Source of the DNA: Dictyostelium discoideum
Lineage: Eukaryota
Length of the DNA: 64,000 nucleotides
Direction of reading: 5' to 3'
Assembly (NCBI GenBank): GCA_000004695.1
Contig: CM000152.2
Location: 2,688,001 to 2,752,000 of the forward strand
The translations under genes and the position numbers were made by a program. Under the pieces are notes generated by a model that ran no database searches, was not told the origin of the DNA, and was given only the letters and a program-made list of their open reading frames with translations. Numbering within the stretch: position 1 is the stretch's first letter; every line of letters starts with the position of its first letter. Of this stretch, positions 175 through 57,525 are shown in pieces.

Positions 175-3100
175 ATGGATAAACCCAAGATTATAATTAA
201 CTCTCATTCCAAAGAAAAACAATTCAAATTAATTCTCGATACTGGAAGTAATGTTAGTTTAATCAATAAGAGGTTGATTTCAAAAGATATGAAGAACCAC
301 GTTCACAAAACCAAAGCCAAGATTAACTTCCCGCTACTAGACGTCAAAGAAGAGTTTGTTGAACAAATCAATATGCAAGTTAACAATGAAATTCATAACT
401 TCTTTATTATAGAATTGGATATCATTGATGTACTTTTCGGTAATGATATCCTTAAGGACTCTATCATTAACCAAAAAGATAAAATAATCAAGTTGAATAA
501 TAGTACATACAAAATTAATTATCAACAGTCGAATCAATTACATTGTAATGTAAAAGCTCCAAGAAAACATGTTACCGTATCCAATGATAATCAGTCACAT
601 AATCTACTGGATGATGATGAAGATATCAAAGAACAAGTTACAAAGTTTGTTGAAAGCATTCCTTCACAACTTTGTGATATACTGGTTAAAACTAATCCAG
701 AAGAAGAAGAGATACAAGCAGTACGAGATTTCATTAATGACTCATTCGAAGATGTTATAGTAGATAAACTTCCTGATATTCCAGATCAGATTAACAATTC
801 CAGAAGAGGTAATATCATACATAATATCATAATCAAGAAAGGTCAAGATGTTGAACCAACAAAGAAACAAATCTATTACTCAACAGATGATCATAAGAGA
901 CATGTCGAAGAGATGGTTCTCAAATTTATAGACTTAGGTATTATCAAAAGATCAGAATCAAATTACTCATCTCCAATCATGTTATTAAAGAAGAGAGATT
1001 CATGGCGTGTAGTCCACGACTATCGTCAACTAAATAAAGTCACTGTTAGAGACGATCATCCATTCACTCCGGTTGATAGTCTTTTAAATCAATGTAAAGA
1101 TTCAAAGCTTTTCTCAAAGTTTGACATGATTATGGGTTATTTCCAAGTGTTAATTAATCCAGAACACGCAAAGTACACCGCTTTCATTACACATATTGGT
1201 AAATTTGAATATACTAGAATGCCACAAGGTTTAGTCAACTCTCCATCCACATTCGCCAGATTGATGGTCGAAATATTTGGAAAAATCAAAAGTTTATTAC
1301 AATACTTTGATGATCTTTTGGTTCATTCAAAACTCGACTACATGGTACATTTCATTGAAATCATTAGAATGCTTCTATATTGTAGAAAGTACCTATTATT
1401 CATTTCAAGAGAAAAGAGTGAAATGTTAAAGACTGAAGTTGATTTCCTTGGTTTTCACATTCATAAAGATGGTATATCTCCAAGAGCTGCAAAGGTTAGA
1501 GCTATCTCTGAGTTACCTGAACCAAGAAACGCCAAAGAAGCTGAAGCTGCATTAGGTCTTTTTGGATTCTTCAGGAGACACATTGAAAATTACGCTGAAA
1601 AAACCTATCACCTTTCCAAAGAATCAAAAGGGAAAAACAAGAAAACTCTTTCTGATGAATCACTCAAAGAATTCAATAATCTAAAGAAAGAGTTTGAAGG
1701 TGAAAATATTGTCGCTATTCCAATTGAACAAGATAACTCCATATCAATAGATATCGAAAAGGTTAAAGCATCAACAGACATGCCAATCCATTCAGATAAT
1801 AATAATATAAACAATGGTAGTTTTCACTTGTATTGTGATGTTAGTGATAAAGCATTATCAGGTGTGTTATATCAAATCCAAGGTGATAAATTCAAAGTCA
1901 TTTGGTTCCACAGTAGAAAACTTACTGATACTCAAAAGAGGTACAGCATAGGTGATAGAGAGTTCCTTTCAATCATTGATTCTCTAAAGAAGTTTCAACA
2001 TTTATTAATTGGTAAAAAGGTTTCAATCTACACTGATCACCAAAATCTTACATATATTATCAATAAGTCAAACGATAAACCGTTCACAAAGAGACAAGAT
2101 AATTATATGAAATATATTAAAGAATTTGATTATGAATTAAGACATATAAGTGGTAAAAAGAATGGTATAGCTGATTTCTTGTCTCGTAAATATGATAATT
2201 TCCAATGGGATGAATCGTTTTTAAATAAAATTAAGGAAGAACAAATCAATTCTCAATGGCTATTAGAGATGAAAAAGAATCCAAATTTATGCATTGAAGA
2301 AATTAATGATATCTGCTACCTTAGTGAAGATGGGTTCAAGAAATTAATCATCATAGATAAAGAAACTATTCATACCGTCATTAGAGAATATCACGATACC
2401 AAATATAGTGGTCATCACGCTTTAGATATCACATACAATAATATAAGACAAGATTACTATTTCAAAGAAATGTTTTCTATTATCAAGAGGTACATAAAGT
2501 CTTGTGCAACATGTCAATTGAACATTAACCGTAAAGATAATGGTATACTCCAAAGTTTAGAAATTCCCTTTGAAGTTTGGAGAGATATATCAATCGATTT
2601 CTTATCGCTACCAAAAACAATGTATGCAATAAACGGATTTACAGTTGAAGTCGATCAAGTTTGTGTCATTGTTTGTAGATTATCTAAAATGGTTCATATA
2701 GTTCCATGTCATAAGACAATAGATGCCCAACATACTGCTCAATTATTGTTGAATCATGTGTTCAGACTCCATGGTTATCCAAGAACAATCGTCTCCGATA
2801 GAGATCCAAGGTTCCTTTCAGAAATATGGGAGAGATGGGCAAAGACGATGGATTCTAAACTCAAGATGACTGTGGCACACAGAGCACAAGCTGATGGTCA
2901 AACTGAAAGAATGAATAGAGAAATTATTAGAATATTAACTAAAGCCTCTACAGAGTATGGGGAGAATTGGTCAGATATCATTCCACTTATTGAATTTGCA
3001 ATGAACTCATCAATGAGCAAGTCTACAAAGATGTCACCATTCCAAATCGTTTATGGATTCAATCCACCAACTCCCGTTAATCACTTCAATTCATTAACAA

Positions 3101-3897
3101 AGACTCGTATACCAATGAGCAACATCAAAAAGATTGTCCGTGATAATATACTAGATGCTCAAATCAATGCTCAAAAGTACTACAACCGAGGTCGTGGTGA
3201 TGTTATCTTCGTAGTCGGAGAAAAGGTTATGGTTAAAAGAAAATTCTTCCAAACTAACCTTTCAAAAGATCTAATCTCTCATAAACTTGAATCCAAGAAT
3301 TGTGGACCATTCATAATCACTGCCGTTCATGGTAATAATGTAACACTCGATTTAGTAGGTTATCCAAAGAAACACAATGTGTTCAACAAGGATCAAATCG
3401 TAAAACTATATGAGGACAGTGAGTGGTTAAGAGAAGAGATATCGATGCCCGAACCTGAGGAGATGGACGAAGCAAGTTACGAAGTTGAAAGTATTCTCAA
3501 TCACGATAAAGTCAAAAAGATGTACCTAGTGAAGTTCAAAGGTTACCCAGAACCTGAATGGATCAAAGAAGTCGATACAGACTGTGAAGAGTTAGTCAGA
3601 GAGTATTGGAATAACGTGCAGAAGAAACAATTGAACTCAAGAAGAGAAAGAGAGAATGTAACTACAGAAGCCGTTGAGCCAATTGTGTCACCTCCGCTCT
3701 CCCAAGAAGTTCAAAGTTCTCAAACATTGCAACCAATTACTCCAAGACAACAAAACTCCATCTCAAATCAAAGAAACCAATCAAAGAAAAGAAAATCAAG
3801 AAATCAAAATACTCAAAGTGATGATGATGAACTTGATCTTAGTTTACAAATTAAAACAACTAGATCAGGAAGAAAAGTTACACCCAAGAGTTTATAG
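175..3897 (+). CDS. pol polyprotein: aspartic protease, reverse transcriptase, RNase H, integrase, C-terminal chromodomain.
   Basis: Motifs LILDTGSNVSLI (PR), YFDDLLVHS (RT), HHALDITY...CATCQ (IN zinc finger), YEVESILNHDKVKKMYLVKFKGYPEPEWIKE (chromodomain). 1240 aa with no stops. Confidence 0.85.
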   Translation: MDKPKIIINSHSKEKQFKLILDTGSNVSLINKRLISKDMKNHVHKTKAKINFPLLDVKEEFVEQINMQVNNEIHNFFIIELDIIDVLFGNDILKDSIINQKDKIIKLNNSTYKINYQQSNQLHCNVKAPRKHVTVSNDNQSHNLLDDDEDIKEQVTKFVESIPSQLCDILVKTNPEEEEIQAVRDFINDSFEDVIVDKLPDIPDQINNSRRGNIIHNIIIKKGQDVEPTKKQIYYSTDDHKRHVEEMVLKFIDLGIIKRSESNYSSPIMLLKKRDSWRVVHDYRQLNKVTVRDDHPFTPVDSLLNQCKDSKLFSKFDMIMGYFQVLINPEHAKYTAFITHIGKFEYTRMPQGLVNSPSTFARLMVEIFGKIKSLLQYFDDLLVHSKLDYMVHFIEIIRMLLYCRKYLLFISREKSEMLKTEVDFLGFHIHKDGISPRAAKVRAISELPEPRNAKEAEAALGLFGFFRRHIENYAEKTYHLSKESKGKNKKTLSDESLKEFNNLKKEFEGENIVAIPIEQDNSISIDIEKVKASTDMPIHSDNNNINNGSFHLYCDVSDKALSGVLYQIQGDKFKVIWFHSRKLTDTQKRYSIGDREFLSIIDSLKKFQHLLIGKKVSIYTDHQNLTYIINKSNDKPFTKRQDNYMKYIKEFDYELRHISGKKNGIADFLSRKYDNFQWDESFLNKIKEEQINSQWLLEMKKNPNLCIEEINDICYLSEDGFKKLIIIDKETIHTVIREYHDTKYSGHHALDITYNNIRQDYYFKEMFSIIKRYIKSCATCQLNINRKDNGILQSLEIPFEVWRDISIDFLSLPKTMYAINGFTVEVDQVCVIVCRLSKMVHIVPCHKTIDAQHTAQLLLNHVFRLHGYPRTIVSDRDPRFLSEIWERWAKTMDSKLKMTVAHRAQADGQTERMNREIIRILTKASTEYGENWSDIIPLIEFAMNSSMSKSTKMSPFQIVYGFNPPTPVNHFNSLTKTRIPMSNIKKIVRDNILDAQINAQKYYNRGRGDVIFVVGEKVMVKRKFFQTNLSKDLISHKLESKNCGPFIITAVHGNNVTLDLVGYPKKHNVFNKDQIVKLYEDSEWLREEISMPEPEEMDEASYEVESILNHDKVKKMYLVKFKGYPEPEWIKEVDTDCEELVREYWNNVQKKQLNSRRERENVTTEAVEPIVSPPLSQEVQSSQTLQPITPRQQNSISNQRNQSKKRKSRNQNTQSDDDELDLSLQIKTTRSGRKVTPKSL

Positions 3898-3922
3898 TCC
3901 ACCTCTGAGCCATAGCTAGCCT

Positions 3923-3940
3923 AAAGAAGGAAGGGGAAGG
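3923..3940 (+). other. Polypurine tract (PPT) priming plus-strand synthesis.
   Basis: aaagaaggaaggggaagg is immediately followed by TGTTAG at the start of the 3' LTR. Confidence 0.6.
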
Positions 3941-4431
3941 TGTTAGAGACTCAAAACTAAATTAATTTAAAGTTAGTATGAGCTCAACAACGTAACAAAT
4001 TCGCGCATCTCCATATAAAAATATTTCATTTAATTTTTATTTTTATTTTTTAATTTTTTATTTTTTCAGTCAAAAAATAAAAAATTAAATTAAAAAAAAT
4101 TAAATTAAATTAAAATTTAAAAAAATAATAAAAATTCTGATTTTCGGTTTAGTTGGCATAACGCCCTTACTTTTAATTATCTCTTTTATGTATGTTTACT
4201 TTTATGATATTAGTCTTTCACTCTTTCTATCCTTCATATTAAAATACATTACTTTAAAGATTGGACTGTTTGATTTAAGATTGAATAAATGTGACAATGG
4301 ATTGAAGATTAGTGTGAGTGACTTTTACACTATCGGAGATGAATCATTTAATAATTTGTCAATAGGTAATGTATTAGGAAATGCAAATGCTCCAAACCCA
4401 ATGGAAAACCAGAGAATAATAATTAGAAGAC
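3941..4431 (+). repeat. 3' LTR of the chromodomain element. Starts TG, ends CA, about 491 bp. Its end is inferred from the junction with the inverted TRE module.
   Basis: Starts right after the PPT with TGTT. Ends ...agaagaCA where TRE module sequence (cagcaaagaaaaatgcacc, the reverse complement of ctttaaaggtgcatttttctttgctg at 9290-9315) begins. The 5' LTR is outside the window, so length is unconfirmed. Confidence 0.45.
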
Positions 4432-4439
4432 ACAGCAAA

Positions 4440-4800
4440 GAAAAATGCACCTTTAAAGCAAATTTAAAGAAAAGTTGATTTAAATTGGATTTAAATTGAA
4501 TTTAAAGCCGCGTTTAAAAAATTCATTTTTAAGGTAATTTTTAAGGTAATTTTTAAGATATTTAAAAATGCCTTTAAAATTTGCTTTAAAATAAATTTTT
4601 AAGCAATTTTAAAGGTGATTTTAAAGGTGATTTTAAAGGTGATTTTTAAGGTAATTTTTAAGATAATTTTTAAGATATTTAAAAATACCTTTAAAATTTA
4701 TTTTAAATTAATTTTAAATAGGATTTAAAGTAGATTTAAAGTAGATTTAAAGTGAATTTAAATTTCCTTTAAACATAAATTTAAGGTTTTTAATATCTTT
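4440..4800 (-). repeat. TRE non-coding module copy in inverted orientation.
   Basis: Reverse complement of the unit at 8940-9310. It is followed by a plus-oriented TRE 3' end plus poly(A) (4797-4962). Confidence 0.65.
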
Positions 4801-4913
4801 TGATCAATTCATATGATTAAAATAACCCTTCAGCTTAAATGATAAGCCTTTAAATAAATATTAAATAAAACTCGTATTAACACAGATGGACATATATCAA
4901 TCTTGTTAATCCA

Positions 4914-4965
<52 letters not shown>

Positions 4966-5289
4966 AAGCGATTAAAAAGGTAATTTTAAAGGTAATTTTA
5001 AAGGTAATTTTTAAGGTGATTTTAAAGTAACCTTAAAAATTACCTTTAAAATTACCTTTAAAATTGCTTTAATTCGGGACTTTAAAGCAAATTTAAATTT
5101 AATTTAAAGCGAATTTAAAGGTGGTTTTTTCTTCGCTGTGGAGTTCCAAGGCCAACTGTTCCACCAATCCAAGAAACAGTGCAAATAACCACAAACCCAC
5201 GTGTAACATACATATTGGAATACGAAAGTCTTCAAAAAGTTTGTCAAAGTAAATACTATTCAGATGGCGATGTATGTTACCAGATTAAT

Positions 5290-5335
<46 letters not shown>

Positions 5336-5608
5336 TTAAATAAATAGGTTTCAAATTTCTTTATTACTGGAATAATTAAACAAGCTGGTGGTAGTAACGA
5401 AGATTGTACCAGTCAAAATATTTTTGCAAGGTTAACGAAATGGGTAAGTAATAAGGAAAGTAACCCAAGAACAAAAGTAGCTGGCAGTTTAGCCATTTAT
5501 TCAAAAGGTGAGAAAAACCACAATTTTAAAGTTTATATTTTCGATAGCCAAGTATTTTTTGGTAATGAAATTGTGTGTATAAATTAATATAATCAAAATT
5601 TACAAATA

Positions 5609-5651
<43 letters not shown>

Positions 5652-6478
5652 AAATATAGTTTTCCCCTGCTTTACTTTCTCTTTTTCTCAACCACATTAA
5701 TTATGAAAATTATCAAAATGATATTTTCATAAAAGAGTTTGTTGACTCTTGTAAAACAGGTGAAGAGAAACACTGGTACCCAGATTCAGTTCCTTTAATA
5801 AAGAGATTAATTTCAATATTAAATGATTTTAGTAGTAAATTTGACTCTAAGGCTAAAATGAGAAAAGATGCACAAGAAGCTTTTCAATTTCCTAATTCTG
5901 CACTTTACTTAAATTCTTCCCAATAAAAGTTTTAAAATAATTTTTAAAATTTAAAAATAAATTTTATTATTAAAAAATAATATATCTGTGTATTTTATTT
6001 TTCACTTAAAATTTTATTTCATACTATAGTTTTAAAATAATTTTTAAATTTTTTTTATTTATTTTTGTAGCATTATTAATAAGGTGCTTTTAAATGTAAT
6101 TATTAATAAACTTTAAAATTCAATTTTTAAGGAGCTTTAAAATGTAATTATTAATATAATTTTTAATCATATTTTTAAGTAATTTTAAAGAGCATTATAA
6201 AGATAATTTTAAAGGGCATTTTAAACTTAATTTTAAAGAGCATTATAAAGGTAATTTTAAAGGTCATTTTAAAGGTAATTTTCAAGGTCATTTTAAAGGT
6301 GATTTTAAAGGTGATTTTAAAGGTGATTTTAAAGGTCATTTAAAAAATTGCTTTTAAATTAATTTTTAAGTGACTTTTTTATAGGACTTTAAATCCACTT
6401 TTAATTTAATTTAAAGTTGCTTTAAAGGTGTAATTTTCATCGCTGTGAATCGAAGCCATCAGAATTTCAAATAACCTA

Positions 6479-6952
6479 ATGGATATGGACCAACTAAATA
6501 AAAGACCCACCTTCTCAAGAACGATACACAACACAAACAATAACCTCACAAGAATCTTGGAAAGGAGACTAGACAGAATATACCTTAACAATAGCTTAAT
6601 CAACTACAGCCAATTATACTTAAGGAACCTAATCCCCCCAAAAATTAACGACATACCTCTATCAGATCACAACTTCCTATCAACCACTTTCACTCTACCC
6701 AACATACAGATGAACAAGCGCAGATGGAGATTAAAAAAATCCTCAATCCTCTCAAGCATAATGCTTAAGAAAATAGACTTCCTACTTAACGATTATTCAA
6801 GGGAGCTGTCATCCAACCATAACTCTATTTCCTTCTCTCAACTCAACAGCTTACTGAACAAAATAAAACAACTATACACCGAATTTCAAAAACAAAACGA
6901 CTACAACAATAAGGCAAACATCAAAAATCTAATCTCCCTACTAGAGACATAA
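6479..6952 (+). pseudogene. TRE ORF2 fragment: C-terminal part of the apurinic-endonuclease-like domain, 5' truncated.
   Basis: ...DRIYLNNSL...IPLSDHNFL (SDH motif at the end of APE-type EN). Preceded by module repeats (5990-6450). A stop separates it from the RT ORF. Confidence 0.6.
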
Positions 6953-7027
6953 TTTAAAGACCAAGCCTTCGCAACCCTTTCAGCAATAAATGAATCTAAA
7001 AAAAGAGAAGAACAACTTAAACAAGAA

Positions 7028-8215
7028 TTGAACAACTATTGCGAAGAAACCTCACTCAAGTACATCTCCGCGAGAATCAAGAAAAGACACAATGATTTCA
7101 CCATCAACGCAGTAAAAGATGTACAAGGTAGAACAAATAACAAACAGGAATTGATCGAAGAAGAATACGTAAAATATTACTCAAATCTTTATGACTACAA
7201 AGAAGATGACCCACTATCTCATTACGAAATGTTGGAAAATTGGACAGTGACCAGGGACTCAACATGGGACAACCTTGAAAATGAATTCACCTCACAAGAA
7301 ATCCTAGAAGTAATAAAACAACTGAACCCACACAAATCTCCAGGTCCAGATGGAATTCCAAACTTATTCTACATAACACACAAAGAAAAACTAGCTCCAA
7401 TACTGGCCTCAGCATTCAACGACACTCTAAGAAATCCTCATCTAAATAGCAAAAATTACAAAGAAGGCCTCATTATCACGATACCTAAAAAGGGAGACCC
7501 CGAACTAATCAAAAACAGAAGACCAATTACACTGGCTAACTGTATATATAAAATCCACTCAAAGCTAATAAACAATAGAATAATCCCAATACTAACGAAA
7601 GTGATCAACCACTATCAAAAAGGTTTCGTACCAGGCAGATTCATTATAGATAATATCATATCAATGAACGAATTAATCAACTATTGTAATGATAAAAGAA
7701 TTAACGGAATAATTACACTATATGATTTCGAAAAAGCTTTTGACTCGATCTCACACGGTTCAATACTTAGATCACTACAACACATCAACATTCCAACCAA
7801 TATAATCAACCTGATAATGAATCTACTCACCAAATCTGAAGCAAGAATTGAAATTAATGGTAGAACTACTATACCCTTTGAGATCAAAAGAGGAGTTAAA
7901 CAAGGAGATCCACTATCACCCACACTGTTCGTCCTTGTAATAGAGGCTTTAGCTAGAAAAATTTTACAAGATGATCGAATTACTGGCCTTCCTCTAAACA
8001 ACAGCAACCACAGAGAGAAATTCCAAAGCTTTGCAGACGACTCGGCTTCAATGGTCCCAGACTCTCAACAACTTGAATTAGTACTACAACACTTCAATTC
8101 ATTTTGCAAAGCCACTTCCTCAAAACTAAACATCGACAAATCTTCATCAATTCTTATAGGCAACCCAGACAATACCAACACAGCGAAGAAAAAACCACCT
8201 TTAAATTCGCTTTAA
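7028..8215 (+). pseudogene. TRE ORF2 fragment: reverse transcriptase domain.
   Basis: PGPDGIPNLFY, LYDFEKAFDSISH and SFADDSA (YXDD-type) motifs typical of non-LTR RT. The ORF is interrupted at 8215 by 1.5 kb of module repeats. Confidence 0.75.
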
Positions 8216-9719
8216 ATTAAATTTAAATTTGCTTTAAAGTCCTGAATTAAAGCAATTTTAAAGGTAATTTTAAAGGTAATTTTTAAGGTTACTTTAAAAC
8301 CACCTTAAAAATTACCTTTAAAATTACCTTTAATTACCTTTTTAATGGCTTTAAAAGCGAGGTCCTGAGTTCGAAGCCGTTATTTAACGGATAAATTTTT
8401 TAAAATTTTTTTTTTTAATTTTTCAAAAATTACCAAAAGGGATTCGATCCCCCGACCCTCTATCAAAGGGTAGTCTCATCAACCATTACACCATTTGATT
8501 GCTTTGATGAAAAATTTAAAAATGATAGAATATTTTATCCCCATTTTTTTGTTCTAAAATTACACAGCGAAGAAAAAACCACCTTTAAATTCGCTTTAAA
8601 TTAAATTTAAATTTGCTTTAAAGTCCTGAATTAAAAAAATTTTAAAGGTAATTTTAAAGGTAATTTTTAAGGTTACTTTAAAACCACCTTAAAAATTACC
8701 TTTAAAATTACCTTTAAAATTACCTTTTTAATGGCTTTAAAAGCGAGGTCCTGAGTTCGAAGCCGTTATTTAACGGATAAATTTTTTAAAATTTTTTTTT
8801 TTAATTTTTCAAAAATTACCAAAAGGGATTCGATCCCCCGACCCTCTATCAAAGGGTAGTCTCATCAACCATTAAACCATTTGATTGCTTTGATGAAAAA
8901 TTTAAAAATGATAGAATATTTTATCCCCATTTTTTTGTTCTAAAATTAGATCTTTTTTATTAAAAACCTTAAATTTATGTTTAAAGGAAATTTAAATTCA
9001 CTTTAAATATACTTTAAATCTACTTTAAATCCTATTTAAAATTAATTTAAAATAAATTTTAAAGGTATTTTTAAATATCTTAAAAATTATCTTAAAAATT
9101 ACCTTAAAAATCACCTTTAAAATCACCTTTAAAATCACCTTTAAAATTGCTTAAAAATTTATTTTAAAGCAAATTTTAAAGGCATTTTTAAATATCTTAA
9201 AAATTACCTTAAAAATTACCTTAAAAATGAATTTTTTAAACGCGGCTTTAAATTCAATTTAAATCCAATTTAAATCAACTTTTCTTTAAATTTGCTTTAA
9301 AGGTGCATTTTTCTTTGCTGTGTAGATCTTTTTTATTAAAAACCTTAAATTTATGTTTAAAGGAAATTTAAATTCACTTTAAATCTACTTTAAATCTACT
9401 TTAAATCCTATTTAAAATTAATTTAAAATAAATTTTAAAGGTATTTTTAAATATCTTAAAAATTATCTTAAAAATTACCTTAAAAATCACCTTTAAAATC
9501 ACCTTTAAAATCACCTTTAAAATCACCTTTAAAATCACCTTTAAAATTGCTTAAAAATTTATTTTAAAGCAAATTTTAAAGGCATTTTTAAATATCTTAA
9601 AAATTACCTTAAAAATTACCTTAAAAATGAATTTTTTAAACGCGGCTTTAAATTCAATTTAAATCCAATTTAAATCAACTTTTCTTTAAATTTGCTTTAA
9701 AGGTGCATTTTTCTTTGCT
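8195..9719 (+). repeat. Tandem duplications of TRE modules (units 8195-8560 and 8560-8940; then 8940-9310 and 9310-9720) inserted within ORF2.
   Basis: Near-identical about 365-380 bp units. They contain tRNA-like B-box-like motifs (gagttcgaagcc, gggattcgatccccc) and (ttttaaaggtnatt)n sub-repeats. Confidence 0.7.
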
Positions 9720-11162
9720 GTGAACCAAAGAATTCCAATATCTACAAATCCAGAAAGATACTTGGGATACTTCTTCACAGGTAAAGGGATAACAAGAAAA
9801 ATGCCAGAAATATTAAACACAATAAGATCATCCTTAGTACTATGGAAAACCACTGACTCAACAATCAAAACCAAAACCAACATCCTCAAAGCATTCGCAC
9901 TCTCTAAATTAACCTACTATTCATATGTAGAGAACTTTAAGGAAGAGGAATTAAACCAAATCAATAAATTAGTCGAATGGTTTTTATCGGCACCAAACAA
10001 CAAAAATGCTAGTGGATTTCAAGTTATTAATTTAATGAGAACCAAAAGAGCAAGATACCCACTAAAAGTAGGGGGCTGGAACATTTGGAATATAGAATTG
10101 AGACAACTGGCGCAGAAACTTTGGATCATAAACCAGTTCATCCTAGCACTAGAAACCAAACAAACAAACTCATCTCATCACAAAAGCTGGGAATATCAGA
10201 TCCAAAAAAACAAATTCACATCCAGATACCTAAAAGAAAACTTAGACGAATGGAACAAAATAAGAATAAAAAAAGCAATCTTCAACAATAATCTCACATC
10301 CATAAAAAACGAAAATGGACAACCACTTTCACTGGCAGAATGGTATACCACAATTCAAGACCAAAATCCAACCATCCCTAAAACGGAATTCCAATCATCT
10401 CTAAACTTAAGAGGCTACAGCTATAATCAACTCTTCAACAACATACTGAAGATAAAAGACCCTAAAACAAGAGACACAATGTTTAGATTCCATGCCAGAT
10501 GCCTTCCAATAAACTACCTTCACAACAAACAATGCCCACTCTGCAAAGAAGATATGAGCAAAGACCCATACGGTCACCTGTTCTTCTCATGCAAGAAAAC
10601 AAAACAATTCATAAAAATAAATAAACTCAAAAATTTCATCTATATTACCACAGGCAAAGGTAAAAACTGGCACCATACAAGAATTAGGCAAAATAACAAT
10701 TTCATTAATAGAATAACTCCAAAATTATCACCGACAGCCAAAAAAGATCAAGAAGTGAATGCAGATTACGCCAACCACAGATTCCACAAAGAATACTTTG
10801 AATGGAACTATAAAGCAATAGACTATGATCTAACCAGATCATTCGCATATAGAAACCTAATGGCCCTTATCCTCCACAACATTTGGATTTGGATTTGCAA
10901 TCAAATATACAGTGAAGATCCTTTAACAGATGAATCACTATCATACAGCTCCCTTCTAAAGAAATGGCACAAATTGGCCACTCTAGAATACATCAAAAAA
11001 GCAAAAGATCTGAAAAACTTATCAGCAAAAGACCATAATAACTTCAAAGATCCTAAGATCCTTCTCACTTCAACGATCAAGCTAAGAAAAACAACAGCTA
11101 ATTACTATTGTATTCCAGAATCATCTCTCCCAAATATTATATCTTTTGATCAATTCATATGA
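9720..11162 (+). pseudogene. TRE ORF2 C-terminal region with CCHC zinc knuckle. Ends at the element 3' UTR plus poly(A) (11163-11294).
   Basis: CPLCKEDMSKDPYGHLFFSCKK (C2HC). Its last codons (...PNIISFDQFI) match the 3' end also seen at 4797. Confidence 0.7.
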
Positions 11163-11259
11163 TTAAAATAACCCTTCAGCTTAAATGATAAGCCTTTAAA
11201 TAAATATTAAATAAAACTCGTATTAACACAGATGGACATATATCAATCTTGTTAATCCA

Positions 11260-11292
<33 letters not shown>

Positions 11293-11294
11293 TA

Positions 11295-12430
11295 AAGACC
11301 CAATCGATTAAAGAAATAATTAAAATAAGATTCGAATTTAAAACTCTTTCAAAAGATCCGGGCAACTTTAAAGACCAAAACGATTTCCAAAAACAAATAA
11401 TTAAATTAAGAAAACTAACCTGCAAAGTTTACTCCATCCTGTGATCAGTGCTTCCAAATCTTATATCATTGGATCAATTCATATAATCTTTATTACAACA
11501 CATTTTAATAATTCATATAATTCAAAAAAATAAAAAAAAGAAAAACTTCTTAATTTTTAATATTAAAATCCATAAATAAAACTATTAATTATTGTTTATA
11601 TTCCTTTCCAGAAAAACTGTAATTAATCAATATATATAAAAAAAAAAAAAAAAAAAATTCAAATAAAATATTTGTCGATTATGTAAAATAAATTAAAAAA
11701 AAAAAAAAAAAAAATCTAAATTAACACTTTATTAAATTAAGATCAAGTAAATAATTAATTAATATCTAAAAACAAGAACACTTTGATTGGGGACAAAAAT
11801 ATGTAAACTATGACCTATTCAGAACCTTTGTATTTAGAACATAAAGACATTAATAAAATCTGGTTTGGAAAGATCAACTGGTTTAAAAAAATTCCTTATT
11901 TGATAATTCAAATTAAAAAAGGAATCTAAACATTTTTAAAAAAGGAATCTAAACATAAATAAAACCATGAATTATTATTTTCTTTAATTTTTTATTTTTT
12001 TATTTTTTATTTTTTATTTTTTTTTAATATTGATTAATCAATGTTTATCCATTAATGGAAATAAACAGGTTAATTTTCTTAATTTAAAATCTTTTGCTTT
12101 TGTACCATTTGTTGGTTAGAGTATGAGAGTTTTTAATCTCTGTTCGTTCGTCTTTATGTTTCTATATGCTAATGTTCTGGATAAATCATAGTTTACACAT
12201 TTATAACCCCATTCGAAATATTCTTTGTGGAATCTTAGATTTGCCTAGCCTAAGTTGACCTCATGGTCTTTCCTTATATTTGGTGGAATTATAGGTTTAA
12301 ATCTGTTAATTTATTGTTTGATCTAATTCAATAATGGGTCCAGTGTTTTACTCTACCTGTGGCAATGAAGATGAAGTTTTTCAATCTATGAGGTTAAATA
12401 ATAAATAAAATAATGTTTTCATAAAATTAA
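11295..12430. mobile_element. Older, degenerate TRE ORF2 3' fragments in both orientations (plus about 11790-11900; minus about 12100-12420). They run up to the ex-B box downstream of tRNA-Ile.
   Basis: The minus-strand translation FHKEYFEWGYKCVNYDLSRTLAYRN parallels FHKEYFEWNYKAIDYDLTRSFAYRN of the ORF2 at 10800-10870. A divergent copy of the ORF2 terminal codons plus UTR sits at 11440-11537. Confidence 0.5.
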
Positions 12431-12488
12431 AGACTTTTTTTGTGAAATCAAAGAATTGCTTAATATATGTTAGCATATATCTAAATAC

Positions 12489-12499
12489 GGAATTGAACC
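12489..12499 (-). promoter_or_regulatory. External B box (ex-B) 36 bp downstream of tRNA-Ile.
   Basis: GGTTCAATTCC on the gene strand. ex-B boxes about 40 bp downstream are a known feature of Dictyostelium tRNA genes. Confidence 0.6.
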
Positions 12500-12534
12500 A
12501 ACGATCGTATAAAGAATTCTTAAAAAAAAGAACT

Positions 12535-12607
12535 TGCTCGATGCAGGGATCGAACCTGCGACCGTGGCGTTATTAGCACCACGCTCTGCCGACTGAGCTA
12601 ATCGAGC
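12535..12607 (-). tRNA. tRNA-Ile (anticodon AAU).
   Basis: Manual cloverleaf: GCTCGAT-TA-GCTC-AGTCGGCA-GAGC-G-TGGTG-CTAATAA-CGCCA-CGGTC-GCAGG-TTCGATC-CCTGC-ATCGAGC-A. A and B boxes present. T8 terminator on the gene strand (plus 12522-12529). Confidence 0.9.
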
Positions 12608-12621
12608 TTTTTATATTTTTC

Positions 12622-12877
12622 TGTAATAAAGTTACTCTATAAAATTAATAGATATTAAATATGCATATTACATTACTAATTATAGTTGACACACATTTAA
12701 ATAATATAATAATAATACTGTCAACTCATTATAAATAATATAAATACTAAAGAATAATTTTATTAACAATATTGAATATTATAAATATAAACTAATATTA
12801 AATAAAGATAACAAAGTATTATTCAATTATATAATTATTAATTATATATATTTATAAAGCTAACAAGCTTTATTACA
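12622..12877 (+). repeat. 5' LTR of the DGLT-A-like element.
   Basis: Direct repeat of 14964-15219. Confidence 0.8.
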
Positions 12878-12989
12878 TTTGGCGACATCGTCTTTCAAAA
12901 AAAAAAAAAAAATATATATACTATAAATATAAAGTTATCAAATTATTCAATCAATTAAAATTGTACATTAGATTAAATTTAATTTAATA

Positions 12990-13057
<68 letters not shown>

Positions 13058-13059
<2 letters not shown>

Positions 13060-14335
13060 GAATAATAATGAAAACATAATTTTTTCGGGCGATGGAAAAG
13101 GTTTATCATTTCGTAAATTCAAACACTTACTCTTACTAATTCATGGCGAGGAAATATCGAAAGCTGATATTATTAGAAAACTAAGAAACAATGCATTGGA
13201 ATATGCCGCAACATTGGATACAAACTTAACAGCAATGGAGATAATTGAAGATCTTAAAGATGCTTTTGATATTGGTGATAGTGATGATTTAACAGAATTA
13301 ACAAAGTTGGGAGAATATAAATACAATACATTAGATATATTAATTGGTAAATTTCTATCAAAATGTTCAGCAGTTGATATTTCAGAAAAGTTTAAAATAC
13401 AATTGTTTTATTCAGCTGTTGGCACTGAATTGGGTATTGAAATTACAAAATGTGCACCAAAATCATTAAAAAGAGCAATAGATATTGCAAAGTCTTGTGA
13501 AGATGGTTCAATTCGTATCAAAGGTAGATCAATGTACACTGGTCAATTAGTTGCAAAGACGTTGCAAGAATTTGGTAATCAAAGATATCTAGGTTCGGGT
13601 TCTGGTTATTCTTCAACATCCCCTCAATATGTTACATCTCAAAACGAACAACAATCAATTGAATCTGAAGAAATTTCAACACCAATTTTTAAAAATCAAT
13701 ATTATAATCGATCACCACAAATGTCACCACAATCATCCCCTTATAAAGCACCACAAAATCAAGTAAATTCAATCACAAAATTTTGTAAATATTGCAAAAA
13801 GAAAGGTCATGTAATTCAAGAGTGTTGGTCAAAAGATAAAAATAATAATAACAATTACAATAATAGAACTAATTCAATTACAATGGTCAATAATAGTACA
13901 ATTAATTCAATTGGAATAGATAGTATGAATGCAGCTTTATTAATAAATAATAAAAATGTTAGAGGTTTGATTGATACTGGTTCATCACTTACTATTGTTT
14001 GGGAAAGTATTGCTAAAAAGTTAAAATTAAAGATTGAAAATAAACAATATTCTGTTAAATCAGCATCAAATAATGAAATCAAAATCATTGGAATAAGTAA
14101 CACAACAATTAAATTAGGTAAAGCATTGGCTAGAGTTAAAGTTAATGTTGTTAAAGATAATGATACATCAATTGATTGTATATTTGGCATTGATACAATA
14201 ATTGGATTAAATTTAGTCATTGATTTTAAAGAAATGATCATTAAGAATCTTGAATTCAATGTTGGTACCAAATTAATATCTAAAGAAACCCAACCATGTA
14301 TACAAACTATATTTAAAACAGTATCTGATTATTCA

Positions 14336-14366
<31 letters not shown>

Positions 14367-14968
14367 CATCAAAATCAGAATTATTAACAGATACTGATCA
14401 TTTAATTGAAAATTTTAATTCTCATCATATACTATCAATCAAATCGTGTCCAACTATTGAAGAACAACTACCAATAGATTACGATATTCCAGAATTCTTA
14501 TTCCAAGAACCAATAGATTCACCAATAACATCAAATTTACCATTAAAATCAATATCATTAAATCAAACAGAGAATTCAATAATTAAATCACAAATAACCT
14601 CAATTCAACCATTAATAAGAAATCCATGTACAAATTTATCAAGATTAGATTTTGCTCATAATTTCGCCCAAATTGTAAATAATAACTTCAAACGTCCTTG
14701 TCTCATTAAGGATAATCTTGGTAAAGACCAATTATCACAAATTAATAAAAAAGTTTCTCGTTCAAATATTCAAGTAGGAGATTATGTCTATTTACAATCC
14801 ACTGTTGGTCCAGTAAAGCTCAATAAATCTTGGGAAGGTCTTTTCAAAGTACATGAGAGAGTTAGCGATTTAAAATTCAAATTAGTATTGGATAATATTA
14901 AAAATCATGATGTGTTTTATATTAAAAGATTGAAAAATTTTTTTCAACTAAAAGGGGGGGATATGTAA
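13058..14968 (+). CDS. Gag-protease polyprotein (CCHC zinc knuckle plus aspartic protease). RT/RH/IN are missing.
   Basis: CKYCKKKGHVIQECWSKD zinc knuckle. LIDTGSSLTIV protease active site. The ORF ends at the 3' LTR boundary. Confidence 0.8.
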
Positions 14969-15219
14969 TAAAGTTACTCTATAAAATTAATAGATATTAA
15001 ATATGCATATTACATTACTAATTATAGTTGACACACATTTAAATAATATAATAATAATACTGTCAACTCATTATAAATAATATAAATACTAAAGAATAAT
15101 TTTATTAACAATATTGAATATTATAAATATAAACTAATATTAAATAAAGATAACAAAGTATTATTCAATTATATAATTATTAATTATATATATTTATAAA
15201 GCTAACAAGCTTTATTACA
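14964..15219 (+). repeat. 3' LTR of the DGLT-A-like element.
   Basis: Direct repeat of 12622-12877. It overlaps the stop of the gag-PR ORF. Confidence 0.8.
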
Positions 15220-15382
15220 TTTCCATTGAAAATTGGTAGCTGAGGTCATAAAATTTTCAATCATTCGAACCGCATCAATAAAAAGAAGACTCGAAAAATT
15301 CAGCCACAACTGGAACTCGAAACTCATGACCATAAACATCCGGGAACACTTCATACCATACTGCTCATATAACACCAACTAC

Positions 15383-15412
<30 letters not shown>
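15220..15412 (+). mobile_element. Possible 3'-terminal fragment of another non-LTR (TRE C-module-like) ending in oligo(A).
   Basis: Non-AT-rich 170 bp ending in A23. It shares atccggg(c/a)aac with the TRE 3' region at 11350. Confidence 0.3.
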
Positions 15413-15413
<1 letters not shown>

Positions 15414-15518
15414 TTATAACATTAATAATAATAATAATAATATAATAATAATAATAATAATAATATAATAATAATAATAATATAATAATAATAATAATAA
15501 TAATAAAAATAAGAATAA

Positions 15519-15556
<38 letters not shown>

Positions 15557-15860
15557 AAACTCTCCTAGAACACACTCAAATTGAGTGATGTTATTAAAAA
15601 AAAAAAAAAAGTCATAAAAAATTTATCCTATAATTATAAAATTCTTTCCATTAAGGAAAAGTTTAAATACTAAAACCAGGAAACACCTCCTTTAATAGAA
15701 ATCAAAAAAACAATCAAATATAAAAGGTATAGATCTAAATATTTCTAAGCACTACCAAAAGCCTTTGTAATCATTATAATTCCACTTTCCCATGAATGAA
15801 ATGTATATGTATTAATTTTTTTTTTTTTGTTTAAATTTTTTTATTTTTACAATTATTTTT

Positions 15861-17657
15861 TTATTTAAGGGGCCAACCAATTTTTAAAGATTGGACACTT
15901 GAAGGAATTGAATCTGTTAATAATAGGTCTTGGTTAGGAGATTTAAATATTAATGATCTAATATTTGGTGGAATTGAATCTAGAGATAAGTAGTGGTTAA
16001 ATTTTGAACCAAATTTTAAATATTCAACACTTGATGGAATTGAATTAGGTGATATTGGTTGATTGAATTCTTCTCCAAATGTTAAAGATTTAACAGTGGG
16101 TGGAATTAAATTTGGTAATAATGGTTTATTATATTTAAGACCAAATGTTAATGTTTCAATAGTGGTGTTTGATAAATGTAAAACTTGATTTAATTCTCTA
16201 TTAAAATTACATCCAAAAGTTAATGATTTTAAATTTGAAGGTATTGAATTTATTTCCAATGGTTGGTCAAAGCATTCACCAAATGTTAATGATTTGACAT
16301 TGGAAGGGATTACACCCTCTGGTATAGGTTGATTGAAATTTTTACCAAATGTTAAATGAAGAACACTAGATGGAATTATACCAGGTGATAAAGGTTGATT
16401 GAAGCAAATTCCAAATGTTAATGATTCAACATTTGAAGGAATTGATCCTTCCACTAATGGTTGATTAAAGAGTTGACCTAAATCCAATGTTTTAACACTA
16501 GATGGAATTAAACCAGGTAATAATCGATAATTGAAATAACCTTTGAATGATAATGTTTCGACACTTGATGGAATTGTTCCAATTAATAAATTTGGATTGA
16601 AACGAGATTGAAATGTTAATGTTTCAACACTTGATGGAATTATACCAGAAATTAAATTTTTTAGAATTCCAGCAGGTGAGAATATCAAAGTTTTAACACT
16701 TGATGGAATGGAACCAATTGATAGCTCTTGTGCAAAATCCCAACCAAATGTTAATGTTTCAACAGTGTTTGGAATTAAACCAACCGATAAAACTTGATTA
16801 AAACTATTTCCAAATGTTAAAGATTTAACACCATTTGGAATGGAACCAAAAAGTAATGGAAAATTAAAGTCGTCACCAATTTTTAAAGATTTAATAGTTG
16901 ATGGTATAGAATTTGGTAGTAATCTTTGATTAAAATTTAAACCCAAATCTAATGATTTAACACTTGGTGGTATTATTTCAAATGGTATATTTCTTTTAAA
17001 TTTATCACCAAATTTCAAATTTTCAACACCCAATGGAATTGATCCAACCAACAATTGTTGATTATATTCAAAAGGTAATATTAAAGTTTTAACACTTGAT
17101 GGAATTAAACCAGATGCTATTGGTTGATTGAAATTTGCACTAAATGTTAAAGATTTAAGATTTGGTAAACTATTAAAAAACTCTTTTGATAATGGTTGAA
17201 CAAAATTATGACCTAATGATAAAAATTCTACACTTGGAGGAACTGAATCTGCTAATAATTGTTGATTGAAATAAAGTCCAAATTCTAATTTTTTAACACC
17301 TAAAGGAAGTGTATCTTTAACAATTGGTTGATTAAAATCTGAACCAAATTTAATAGATTCAACACTTGATGGAATTGAACCTTGTAATATTGGCTGATTG
17401 AATTTATAACTAAATTCCAAATATATAACATTTGGTGGTATATTTCCATATGAAAACTTTTCATTTGTATCATAAAATAAATGTTTTATAAACTCTCTAA
17501 ATTTAAAATTTATTAGTCTTTCTTTTGAATTTATTGTAATTTTAAAACTCTTATTTAAATATCTAATATAATTTATTATATAATTTTTTAAAAATTTATT
17601 TCTCCAAATACTAAATAGAAAATTATTCTCTTCATCAAATTTATTTATTATTTTCAT
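15861..17657 (-). CDS. FNIP-repeat protein (Dictyostelium-type FNIP/DUF repeats).
   Basis: About 20 tandem 22-aa repeats of the form ...IP.SV..L.FG..FNQPL.... Confidence 0.75.
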   Translation of the reverse strand: MKIINKFDEENNFLFSIWRNKFLKNYIINYIRYLNKSFKITINSKERLINFKFREFIKHLFYDTNEKFSYGNIPPNVIYLEFSYKFNQPILQGSIPSSVESIKFGSDFNQPIVKDTLPLGVKKLEFGLYFNQQLLADSVPPSVEFLSLGHNFVQPLSKEFFNSLPNLKSLTFSANFNQPIASGLIPSSVKTLILPFEYNQQLLVGSIPLGVENLKFGDKFKRNIPFEIIPPSVKSLDLGLNFNQRLLPNSIPSTIKSLKIGDDFNFPLLFGSIPNGVKSLTFGNSFNQVLSVGLIPNTVETLTFGWDFAQELSIGSIPSSVKTLIFSPAGILKNLISGIIPSSVETLTFQSRFNPNLLIGTIPSSVETLSFKGYFNYRLLPGLIPSSVKTLDLGQLFNQPLVEGSIPSNVESLTFGICFNQPLSPGIIPSSVLHLTFGKNFNQPIPEGVIPSNVKSLTFGECFDQPLEINSIPSNLKSLTFGCNFNRELNQVLHLSNTTIETLTFGLKYNKPLLPNLIPPTVKSLTFGEEFNQPISPNSIPSSVEYLKFGSKFNHYLSLDSIPPNIRSLIFKSPNQDLLLTDSIPSSVQSLKIGWPLK

Positions 17658-57399: not shown

Positions 57400-57473
57400 G
57401 TTCGGATGGTGTAGTCGGTTATCACGAATCCTTAACACGGATTAGGTCGTGGGTTCGATTCCCGCTCTGAATA
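57400..57473 (+). tRNA. tRNA-Val (anticodon AAC).
   Basis: GTTCGGA-TG-GTGT-AGTCGGTTA-TCAC-G-AATCC-TTAACAC-GGATT-AGGTC-GTGGG-TTCGATT-CCCGC-TCTGAAT-A. Very close to canonical eukaryotic tRNA-Val. T5 terminator at 57485-57489. Confidence 0.9.
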
Positions 57474-57514
57474 CAAACTAATACTTTTTCCAAAGACAAA
57501 TTTTCATAGTCAAA

Positions 57515-57525
57515 AGTTCGATTCC
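57515..57525 (+). promoter_or_regulatory. External B box (ex-B) 42 bp downstream of tRNA-Val.
   Basis: AGTTCGATTCC matches the B-box consensus GGTTCGANTCC. Confidence 0.6.

Follow-up and report, generated by a model that had tools for sequence, protein, structure and literature searches.

tRNA genes are safe landing sites for the DGLT-A, TRE5 and TRE3 retroelements, as is textbook Dictyostelium biology. Within a 64,000-nt stretch of the Dictyostelium discoideum genome (NCBI GenBank assembly GCA_000004695.1, contig CM000152.2, positions 2,688,001 to 2,752,000 of the forward strand; hereafter the window, with positions counted from its first letter), a tRNA-Ile gene bears a short long terminal repeat (LTR) element on its upstream side and fragments of non-LTR elements on both sides. 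The question raised by this locus is whether the LTR element, which is devoid of reverse transcriptase (RT), was shortened where it now stands or arrived in its short form, and which of the neighbouring fragments owe their place to the tRNA gene. We conclude, with a probability of roughly 0.85, that 12622-15219 holds a DGLT-A (Ty3/gypsy) made non-autonomous by internal deletions, one of a 2.6-kb lineage whose members reached many tRNA genes already in this short form.

Landmarks and position of the LTR element

The element is bounded by two 256-bp LTRs that match at 256 of 256 positions, and a perfect repeat of this length, accompanied by a primer binding site (PBS), a polypurine tract (PPT) and a target site duplication (TSD), is far beyond chance. 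The PBS is an exact 17/17 match to that published for D. discoideum DGLT-A (Spaller et al. 2016, PMC5006619; for the family in this species, see Glöckner et al. 2001, as cited there), and the PPT is conserved across all compared copies, full-length ones included. Between the LTR and nucleotide 1 of the tRNA-Ile gene lies a gap of 14 nt (12608-12621), inside the published range of 13-33 bp upstream of tRNA genes. The other traits listed for DGLT-A are a PPT abutting the right LTR, a single open reading frame (ORF), a CX2CX4HX4C signature in Gag and the absence of a chromodomain (Spaller et al. 2016, PMC5006619).

A preliminary description, made from the letters of the window alone, had proposed a DGLT-A-like element 13 bp upstream of the tRNA-Ile gene, that is, at the usual distance of the family, with perfect 256-bp LTRs, PBS, PPT and a TTTC TSD. 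Each of these landmarks was located (Table 1); the element, its position class and its agreement with the family's range stand, and the distance itself is to be corrected to 14 nt. The comparison of the flanking repeats suggested in the same description was run, too, and the 256/256 match fits a recent insertion, since identical LTRs imply that little time has elapsed. Relative to the 268-bp LTRs of sister copies, both window LTRs carry a common private 12-bp (TAA)n deletion and one substitution. Presence of the private deletion in both LTRs is expected if a single reverse-transcription event made the pair.

Coding capacity compared with full-length DGLT-A

The single ORF (13058-14968, plus strand) has 636 codons, corresponds with 100% identity to the D. 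discoideum AX4 gene DDB_G0279931, continues for ~250 codons beyond the protease (PR) and ends at a TAA within the first bases of the 3′ LTR. Retained in one frame are Gag with its zinc knuckle, PR, a ~50-residue piece of the RNase H-integrase spacer and the integrase C-terminal domain. Pfam found no RVT, RNase H, H2C2 or rve match in this ORF, and no chromodomain.

An exhaustive HMMER search recovered full-length relatives, P0128 (1423 aa) and P0276 (1455 aa), both from Dictyostelium cf. discoideum and both with PR, RVT_1, RNase H, H2C2 and rve domains and without a chromodomain. Residues 1-451 of the window ORF align by blastp to residues 1-454 of P0276 and 1-441 of P0004, which contains RT as well, with 73-79% identity to P0128 and P0276 over the first 400-450 residues. 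Residues 470-519 match P0276 residues 876-939 weakly (38% identity, E=2e-4), and the ~105 last residues (525-629) match P0276 residues 1341-1454 (E=3e-22); P0276 residues 455-875 and 940-1340 have no counterpart in the window ORF in this alignment. The same picture emerged at the DNA level, where positions 1-1676 and 2010-2598 of the element align to positions 2589-4225 and 7022-7657 of the locus encoding P0276 (L008). With domains named by the coordinates of Kling et al. 2018, deletion 1 has removed RT and most of RNase H, and deletion 2, read from the same alignments, the integrase N-terminal and catalytic domains. Within the retained integrase C-terminal domain, the GPY/F motif reads GLFKV, versus GPFKV in the published consensus (supplement of PMC5006619), and the domain is five residues shorter than the published segment.

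The mapping of the deletion against full-length DGLT-A, foreseen in the preliminary description, thereby yielded two internal deletions. Its picture of the coding region changes in consequence: the ORF does not stop after the protease, and the element is more than gag-PR only, the spacer piece and the integrase C-terminal domain being kept in frame. Of the proposed deletion of RT, RNase H and integrase, the loss of RT, of most of RNase H and of the integrase N-terminal and catalytic domains holds, whereas integrase as a whole is not gone. Its further proposal that the element depends on a helper is borne out; as RT, RNase H and the integrase core are missing, the proteins must come in trans.

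The locus of P0276 (L008:2589-7657; D. cf. discoideum GCA_054859235.1, JBTAPI010000014.1) holds an element of 5069 bp with identical 277-bp LTRs, a PBS and PPT as in the window element and an uninterrupted ORF of 1455 codons for Gag-PR-RT-RNase H-integrase, positioned 14 nt upstream of a tRNA-Ile(AAT) gene. Judged from these features, L008 is apparently an intact autonomous DGLT-A. We also considered L008 as the orthologous locus of the window; the match is limited to the tRNA-Ile gene and ~13 nt upstream of it, and orthology is not shown. In a further copy of nearly full length (L005), a frameshift separates PR from RT, and the 12.4 kb compared at this locus contain no tRNA gene.

Taken as a DGLT-A, the window element shares with the family its LTR ends, the exact PBS, the PPT, the single ORF, the zinc knuckle, the protease, an integrase C-terminal domain that lacks a chromodomain, an insertion point 14 bp upstream of a tRNA gene and the occurrence of copies in either orientation. 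It differs in its length (2598 bp, versus 5054 bp as published and 5069 bp in L008), in its GPY/F motif, decayed to GLF, and in its lack of RT, most of RNase H and the integrase N-terminal and catalytic domains. Since, apart from the altered GPY/F motif, the features of autonomy are the only ones missing, this argues for a non-autonomous DGLT-A derivative and not for a different family.

A family of collinear short elements

We compared the loci that encode the closest homologs of the window ORF. Four of them (L001, L003, L004 and L006; Table 1) carry collinear 2.6-kb elements upstream of tRNA genes, in either orientation, with intact ORFs of 632-642 codons and with LTR pairs that are identical, save 3-4 alignment gap columns in L003 and L004. 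That short copies with TSDs of their own are present at other tRNA genes indicates that the short element inserted as a short element, here and elsewhere, and the compared sequences point to the two-deletion structure as a lineage trait, not a local event. L003:5509-8179 and L004:5513-8179 are identical save 12 alignment gap columns and reside on different contigs; such near-identity at different tRNA-Leu genes, with separate TSDs, argues for very recent mobilisation in that assembly. Together, L003 and L004, which come from another D. discoideum assembly, represent a second short type, 18% divergent from the window type. A further copy (L007, in GCA_054883475.1) is 98% identical to the window copy and has its 5′ LTR truncated by another element; ARAGORN detected no tRNA gene in the 7.9-kb L007 locus. 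At L007:2220-2600, the poly(A) end of a TRE5-type sequence abuts the short DGLT-A, from which approximately the first 19-23 bp of the 5′ LTR are missing.

Within AX4, the paralogs DDB_G0271456, DDB_G0276009 and DDB_G0287455 have the same short architecture and fall into the 90%-identity cluster of the window protein, and an AX4-type genome contains at least six or seven short copies. Spaller et al. 2016 (PMC5006619) counted nine non-solo DGLT-A insertions in AX4, all of them incomplete, and the window element is almost certainly one of these 'nine partial copies'. DDB_G0279931 is not mentioned in the searchable literature. Likewise, the accessible literature, in which Glöckner et al. 2001 is not included, nowhere describes the short elements as one coherent lineage with recent mobility, and we claim no priority for this view.

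In deep comparisons, the ratio of nonsynonymous to synonymous divergence (dN/dS) was 0.18-0.29 in Gag and PR, 0.46-0.50 in the integrase C-terminal domain and >1 in the linker. Window-type copies and L001 are near-identical in PR and linker (synonymous divergence, dS, 0.02) and strongly divergent in the integrase C-terminal domain (dS 0.6; window 14630-14968 versus L001:7555-7896). The C-terminal domain of L001 is that of the published consensus, with a stop before the PPT; in window-type copies the frame stays open across the PPT and into the LTR. Such a mosaic, as far as can be read from the aligned copies, suggests that DGLT-A lineages have recombined with one another.

Table 1 Features of the tRNA-Ile locus (window positions) and short DGLT-A copies at other loci (assembly accessions).
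Feature	Location	Strand	Details
DGLT-A LTR element	12622-15219	+	2598 bp
TSD, left copy	12618-12621	+	TTTC; right copy at 15220-15223
5′ LTR	12622-12877	+	256 bp, TG..CA; direct-repeat comparison
PBS	12880-12896	+	TGGCGACATCGTCTTTC; 2 bp past 5′ LTR; only occurrence in window
Gag zinc knuckle	13784-13825	+	CKYCKKKGHVIQEC, CX2CX4HX4C; motif, weak Pfam zf-CCHC_3 match
Aspartic protease	13940-14194	+	DTGSS active site 13973-13987; Pfam Asp_protease_2 E=8e-11, residues 295-379
Remnant of protease-to-RT region (RT N-terminal)	14288-14410	+	left edge of deletion 1; blastp to RT-containing copies stops here
Remnant of RNase H end / RNase H-integrase spacer	14465-14614	+	QLPIDYDIPEF...; between deletions 1 and 2; weak alignment
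Integrase C-terminal domain	14630-14944	+	degenerate GPY/F (GLFKV 14837-14851); P0276 alignment, weak Pfam SH3_Tf2-1
PPT	14950-14963	+	AAAAGGGGGGGATA; abuts 3′ LTR
3′ LTR	14964-15219	+	256 bp, TG..CA; direct-repeat comparison
5′-truncated TRE5-type non-LTR fragment	15257-15610	+	last 44 ORF2 codons, 3′ untranslated region (internal A-run, (TAA)n), poly(A) 15596-15610
tRNA-Ile(AAU) gene	12535-12607	-	ARAGORN; Rfam RF00005, 64.1 bits
Internal B box of tRNA-Ile	12546-12556	-	GGTTCGATCCC; B-box pattern search
External B box (ex-B)	12489-12499	-	GGTTCAATTCC; pattern search, 0 mismatches; 35 nt past tRNA-Ile 3′ end
Decayed TRE3-like fragment	11970-12400	-	ORF2 C-terminus with stops and frameshifts, A-rich tail 11970-12030; homology, translation
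Fragment B	11716-11954	+	decayed ORF2 C-terminus; TRE3-like debris, plus-strand array 11294-11975
Short A-tailed piece	11661-11715	+	TRE3-like debris
Fragment A	11294-11660	+	ORF2 end, 3′ untranslated region and poly(A); TRE3-like debris
Large TRE3-type element	6448-11293	+	plus-strand array continuing into 11294-11975
Short copy L001	GCA_054883475.1		96% to window copy; TSD CTAA; 14 nt from tRNA-Leu(TAA)
Short copy L006	GCA_054883475.1		97% to window copy; TSD ACGG; 28 nt from tRNA-Val(AAC)
Short copy L003	GCA_054859385.1		82% to window copy; TSD TCCG; 12 nt from tRNA-Leu(CAA)
Short copy L004	GCA_054859385.1		82% to window copy; TSD CATA; 14 nt from tRNA-Leu(AAG)

Retroelement sequences around the tRNA-Ile gene

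Beyond the right TSD copy of the DGLT-A and 33 nt of flank lies the TRE5-type fragment, which is 93% identical to the 3′ end of the L007 non-LTR element. ORF2 of the latter shares 41% identity in RT and 28% in its C-terminal part with ORF2 of the TRE3-type element of the window; in the databases, the TRE homologs are all named 'hypothetical protein'. The fragment has a TSD of ~12 nt, GTCATAAAA(A)TTT, at 15245-15256 and 15611-15624. Once the DGLT-A and one of its TSD copies are removed, the 5′ end of the TRE5-type fragment comes to lie 47 nt from nucleotide 1 of the tRNA-Ile gene, in the opposite orientation. This coincides with the primary TRE5-A site of the literature, at 47 +/- 3 upstream of the tRNA gene and likewise in the opposite orientation. 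In spacing, orientation, poly(A) and variable TSD alike, 15257-15610 agrees with the placement of TRE5, and the -47 position is the cleanest match of the locus to a targeting rule. As the 47-nt spacing is restored without the DGLT-A, the DGLT-A came later, between the tRNA gene and the older TRE5-type fragment. A poly(A)-ended fragment past the 3′ LTR had originally been drawn with its end at 15412; that position is an internal A-run, and the actual end is 15610.

On the downstream side, the minus-strand fragment at 11970-12400 agrees with the behaviour of TRE3. It is co-oriented with the tRNA-Ile gene, and its 5′ end falls into the 40-150 bp downstream range of these elements, at a distance of ~134 nt from the 3′ end of the tRNA and ~88 nt past the ex-B box; the sequence itself is badly decayed (69% identity to the reverse complement of 10621-10860 across 240 nt). 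A candidate TSD, ATAAATAAAA..ATG at 11955-11969 and 12401-12415, is identical at 13 of 15 positions, which is weak in AT-rich DNA. TRE3 elements share the orientation of their target tRNA gene (review PMC5911963), a rule that we observed at L006 and L008 as well.

One could view the whole of 11.3-15.6 kb as a single landing pad, with the tRNA-Ile gene as the target of every TRE fragment, given that TREs are published to form tandems at previously used tRNA genes and that several poly(A)-ended fragments stand in a row downstream of this one. However, fragments A and B and the element ending at 11293 lie on the plus strand, opposite to the tRNA-Ile gene, and TRE3 is normally co-oriented with its target, as it is at L006 and L008. 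The left part of the window is, moreover, a rearranged cluster with inverted and duplicated pieces, and we regard a single landing pad as improbable. Given the plus-strand orientation and the lack of any other tRNA gene in 3800-16000 (Rfam, E<=1), the plus-strand TRE3 pieces (6448-11293 and 11294-11975) are not creditable to tRNA-Ile; the array is part of the rearranged repeat cluster and not demonstrably targeted to this gene. The 6448-11293 element is 99.6% identical to an L006 element that stands downstream of, and co-oriented with, tRNA-Val.

The preliminary description had TRE fragments running up to the ex-B box and placed TRE3 downstream near that box. Minus-strand TRE3-like sequence is indeed present and follows the rule, but it ends near 12400, ~90 nt short of the box, and the pieces in 11294-11975 are on the plus strand, in the opposite orientation. 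Its count of three retroelement classes within 15 kb gives way to four families of two classes in the first 15.6 kb, namely Skipper-like and DGLT-A (LTR) and TRE3-type and TRE5-type (non-LTR).

The left 12 kb of the window form a repeat cluster, with unique genes beyond. At its start, a Ty3/gypsy pol ORF of 1240 codons (175-3897; RVT_1, RNase H, H2C2 and rve domains) probably belongs to Skipper; its tail looks chromodomain-like by eye, and Pfam Chromo gave no match at E<=0.001. The TRE3-type element contains tandem duplications with a period of ~380 bp (8178-8742 versus 8562-9146, 88%; 8947-9322 versus 9323-9722, 94%). Inverted copies are found at 4430-4795 (99.7%) and 4964-5140 (97%), and 4793-4946 repeats the TRE3 3′ end (11139-11292) with 100% identity; the 8178-9722 and 4430-5140 sequences represent either a repeat cluster that was rearranged or an unknown element that inserted here. 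AT-rich palindromes in the repeat cluster gave sub-threshold mir-548 matches in Rfam. To the right, the neighbouring gene (15861-17657, minus strand) codes for a protein containing 16 FNIP repeats. A second tRNA gene of the window, tRNA-Val(AAC) at 57400-57474 (plus strand), has an ex-B-like box, AGTTCGATTCC, at 57515-57525, 40 nt downstream.

How the short elements may have moved

In the pathway that we propose, the short element would be transcribed from its 5′ LTR, its RNA would be packaged, and an autonomous DGLT-A would provide the RT and RNase H for reverse transcription from PBS and PPT. Helper integrase, presumably supplied in trans, would then carry out the insertion, of which position and TSD are observed. 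Two regions of DGLT-A bind Tfc4, a subunit of TFIIIC, namely RNase H and the integrase N-terminal extension (IN-NED; Kling et al. 2018), and both are missing from the window element. A candidate for the helper, the L008 element, is present in the close relative D. cf. discoideum.

Alternatively, the short elements might have been mobilised by the machinery of another retroelement, such as Skipper, of which AX4 has two intact copies while it has no intact DGLT-A, and of which the window itself contains a likely pol ORF (175-3897). Yet all short copies are placed as DGLT-A would place them, 12-28 nt upstream of tRNA genes, whereas Skipper-1 is centromeric and not tRNA-associated and Skipper-2 is found downstream of tRNA genes. 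PBS, PPT and LTR ends of the short copies match full-length DGLT-A exactly, whereas a polypyrimidine sequence replaces the canonical PBS in most Skipper elements (PMC5006619). A Skipper-type helper is therefore very unlikely.

It is harder still to maintain that a full-length DGLT-A inserted upstream of the tRNA-Ile gene and that a deletion at this locus afterwards took away its RT, RNase H and integrase core. Such a history would suit the exclusively incomplete DGLT-A copies of AX4 and the frequency of internal deletions in old LTR elements, but the same junctions (…HHILSIKS.PTIEEQLPIDYDIPEF… and …NPCTN.SRLDFA…) recur at other tRNA genes with different flanks and separate TSDs, and the LTRs of the window element are still identical, which leaves little time since insertion. 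That DDB_G0279931 is a domesticated host gene for a Gag-protease protein, as its annotation as a protein-coding 'Peptidase A2 domain-containing protein', its intact ORF and the dN/dS of 0.18-0.29 of Gag and PR in deep comparisons might suggest, is hardly credible for an ORF that lies between identical LTRs with PBS, PPT and TSD, is multicopy at different tRNA genes with locations that vary between sampled assemblies, and gives no signal of constraint among recent copies.

Discussion

The landmarks, the domain comparison and the collinear copies at other tRNA genes argue that the window element belongs to a 2.6-kb non-autonomous DGLT-A lineage that inserted in its short form. Whether this Gag-PR-integrase-C-terminal-domain form is a persistent (or twice-arisen) parasite of autonomous DGLT-A, and not debris, is a more tentative matter, to which we give slightly less than even odds.

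Several observations weigh against our interpretation. No retrotransposition-competent DGLT-A is known in AX4, where 0 of 20 insertions are full length, and the helper for the AX4 copies is by this token absent today. We know of no experimental demonstration of trans mobilisation for DGLT-A. Identical LTRs provide a loose date only, and gene conversion could also yield their identity. Synonymous and nonsynonymous differences among the window, L006 and L007 copies (5:11, 4:10 and 5:7) are indistinguishable from neutral, and we rejected dN/dS as proof of a function of the short form, given that the deep branches may predate the deletions and that the post-deletion differences are few and neutral-looking. 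The apparent breakpoints differ between window-type and L003-type elements, the DNA of their linkers showing weak similarity (Smith-Waterman score 34, versus 18.5 +/- 3 and a maximum of 30 for shuffled sequences), and a Gag-PR tree does not group the two short types together; with differing breakpoints and ungrouped types, it is not established that the short form arose only once. Finally, TRE5-type and TRE3-type would serve here as type labels without a subfamily name, their basis being the distinct ORF2 families and the RT identity given above.

Known systems offer partial parallels. Like the window element, which lies 14 nt from the mature tRNA, Ty3 of yeast is a Ty3/gypsy element with a near-identical insertion position upstream of tRNA genes; it differs in that Ty3 targets by contacts between integrase and TFIIIB, DGLT-A by contacts of RNase H and IN-NED with Tfc4, and the TSD in the window is 4 bp. 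The closest functional analogue of the short DGLT-A would be TRE5-A.2 of D. discoideum, an internally deleted derivative of TRE5-A.1 that keeps the 5′ coding part and the cis-acting ends. TRE5-A.2 is mobilised at tRNA genes in trans by the proteins of the full-length element, which is experimentally supported, whereas the same is proposed here for the short DGLT-A; as a non-LTR element, TRE5-A.2 differs also in its use of target-primed reverse transcription. Dp_DGLT-A.4 and Dp_DGLT-A.5 of D. purpureum are non-autonomous as well and keep the LTRs, PBS, PPT and targeting behaviour of their autonomous relative; they have no ORFs usable for phylogeny, in contrast to the intact Gag-PR-integrase-C-terminal-domain frame in the window. 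Plants, too, have non-autonomous LTR elements of this kind (LARD, TRIM and TR-GAG), of which TR-GAG keep Gag only.

As such, the locus is already known: it is an ordinary, catalogued feature of the D. discoideum reference genome, and because it is contained there and in the published DGLT-A inventory, the finding as originally posed is not new. Our analysis adds two points. The 'partial' DGLT-A copies counted in AX4 for the most part make up a single coherent lineage of non-autonomous elements, characterised by intact ORFs and a defined structure with two deletions, and recent public assemblies hold an apparently intact autonomous DGLT-A. The need for the RNase H-Tfc4 contact in targeting has been untestable without a retrotransposition-competent DGLT-A (Kling et al. 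2018); a natural mini-element together with an intact helper would allow this test. If the short form is indeed a parasite of autonomous DGLT-A, it would represent a non-autonomous LTR element that outlives its helper in a lineage, and also a natural 'mini-DGLT-A' that, combined with an L008-type element, would give the missing retrotransposition assay.

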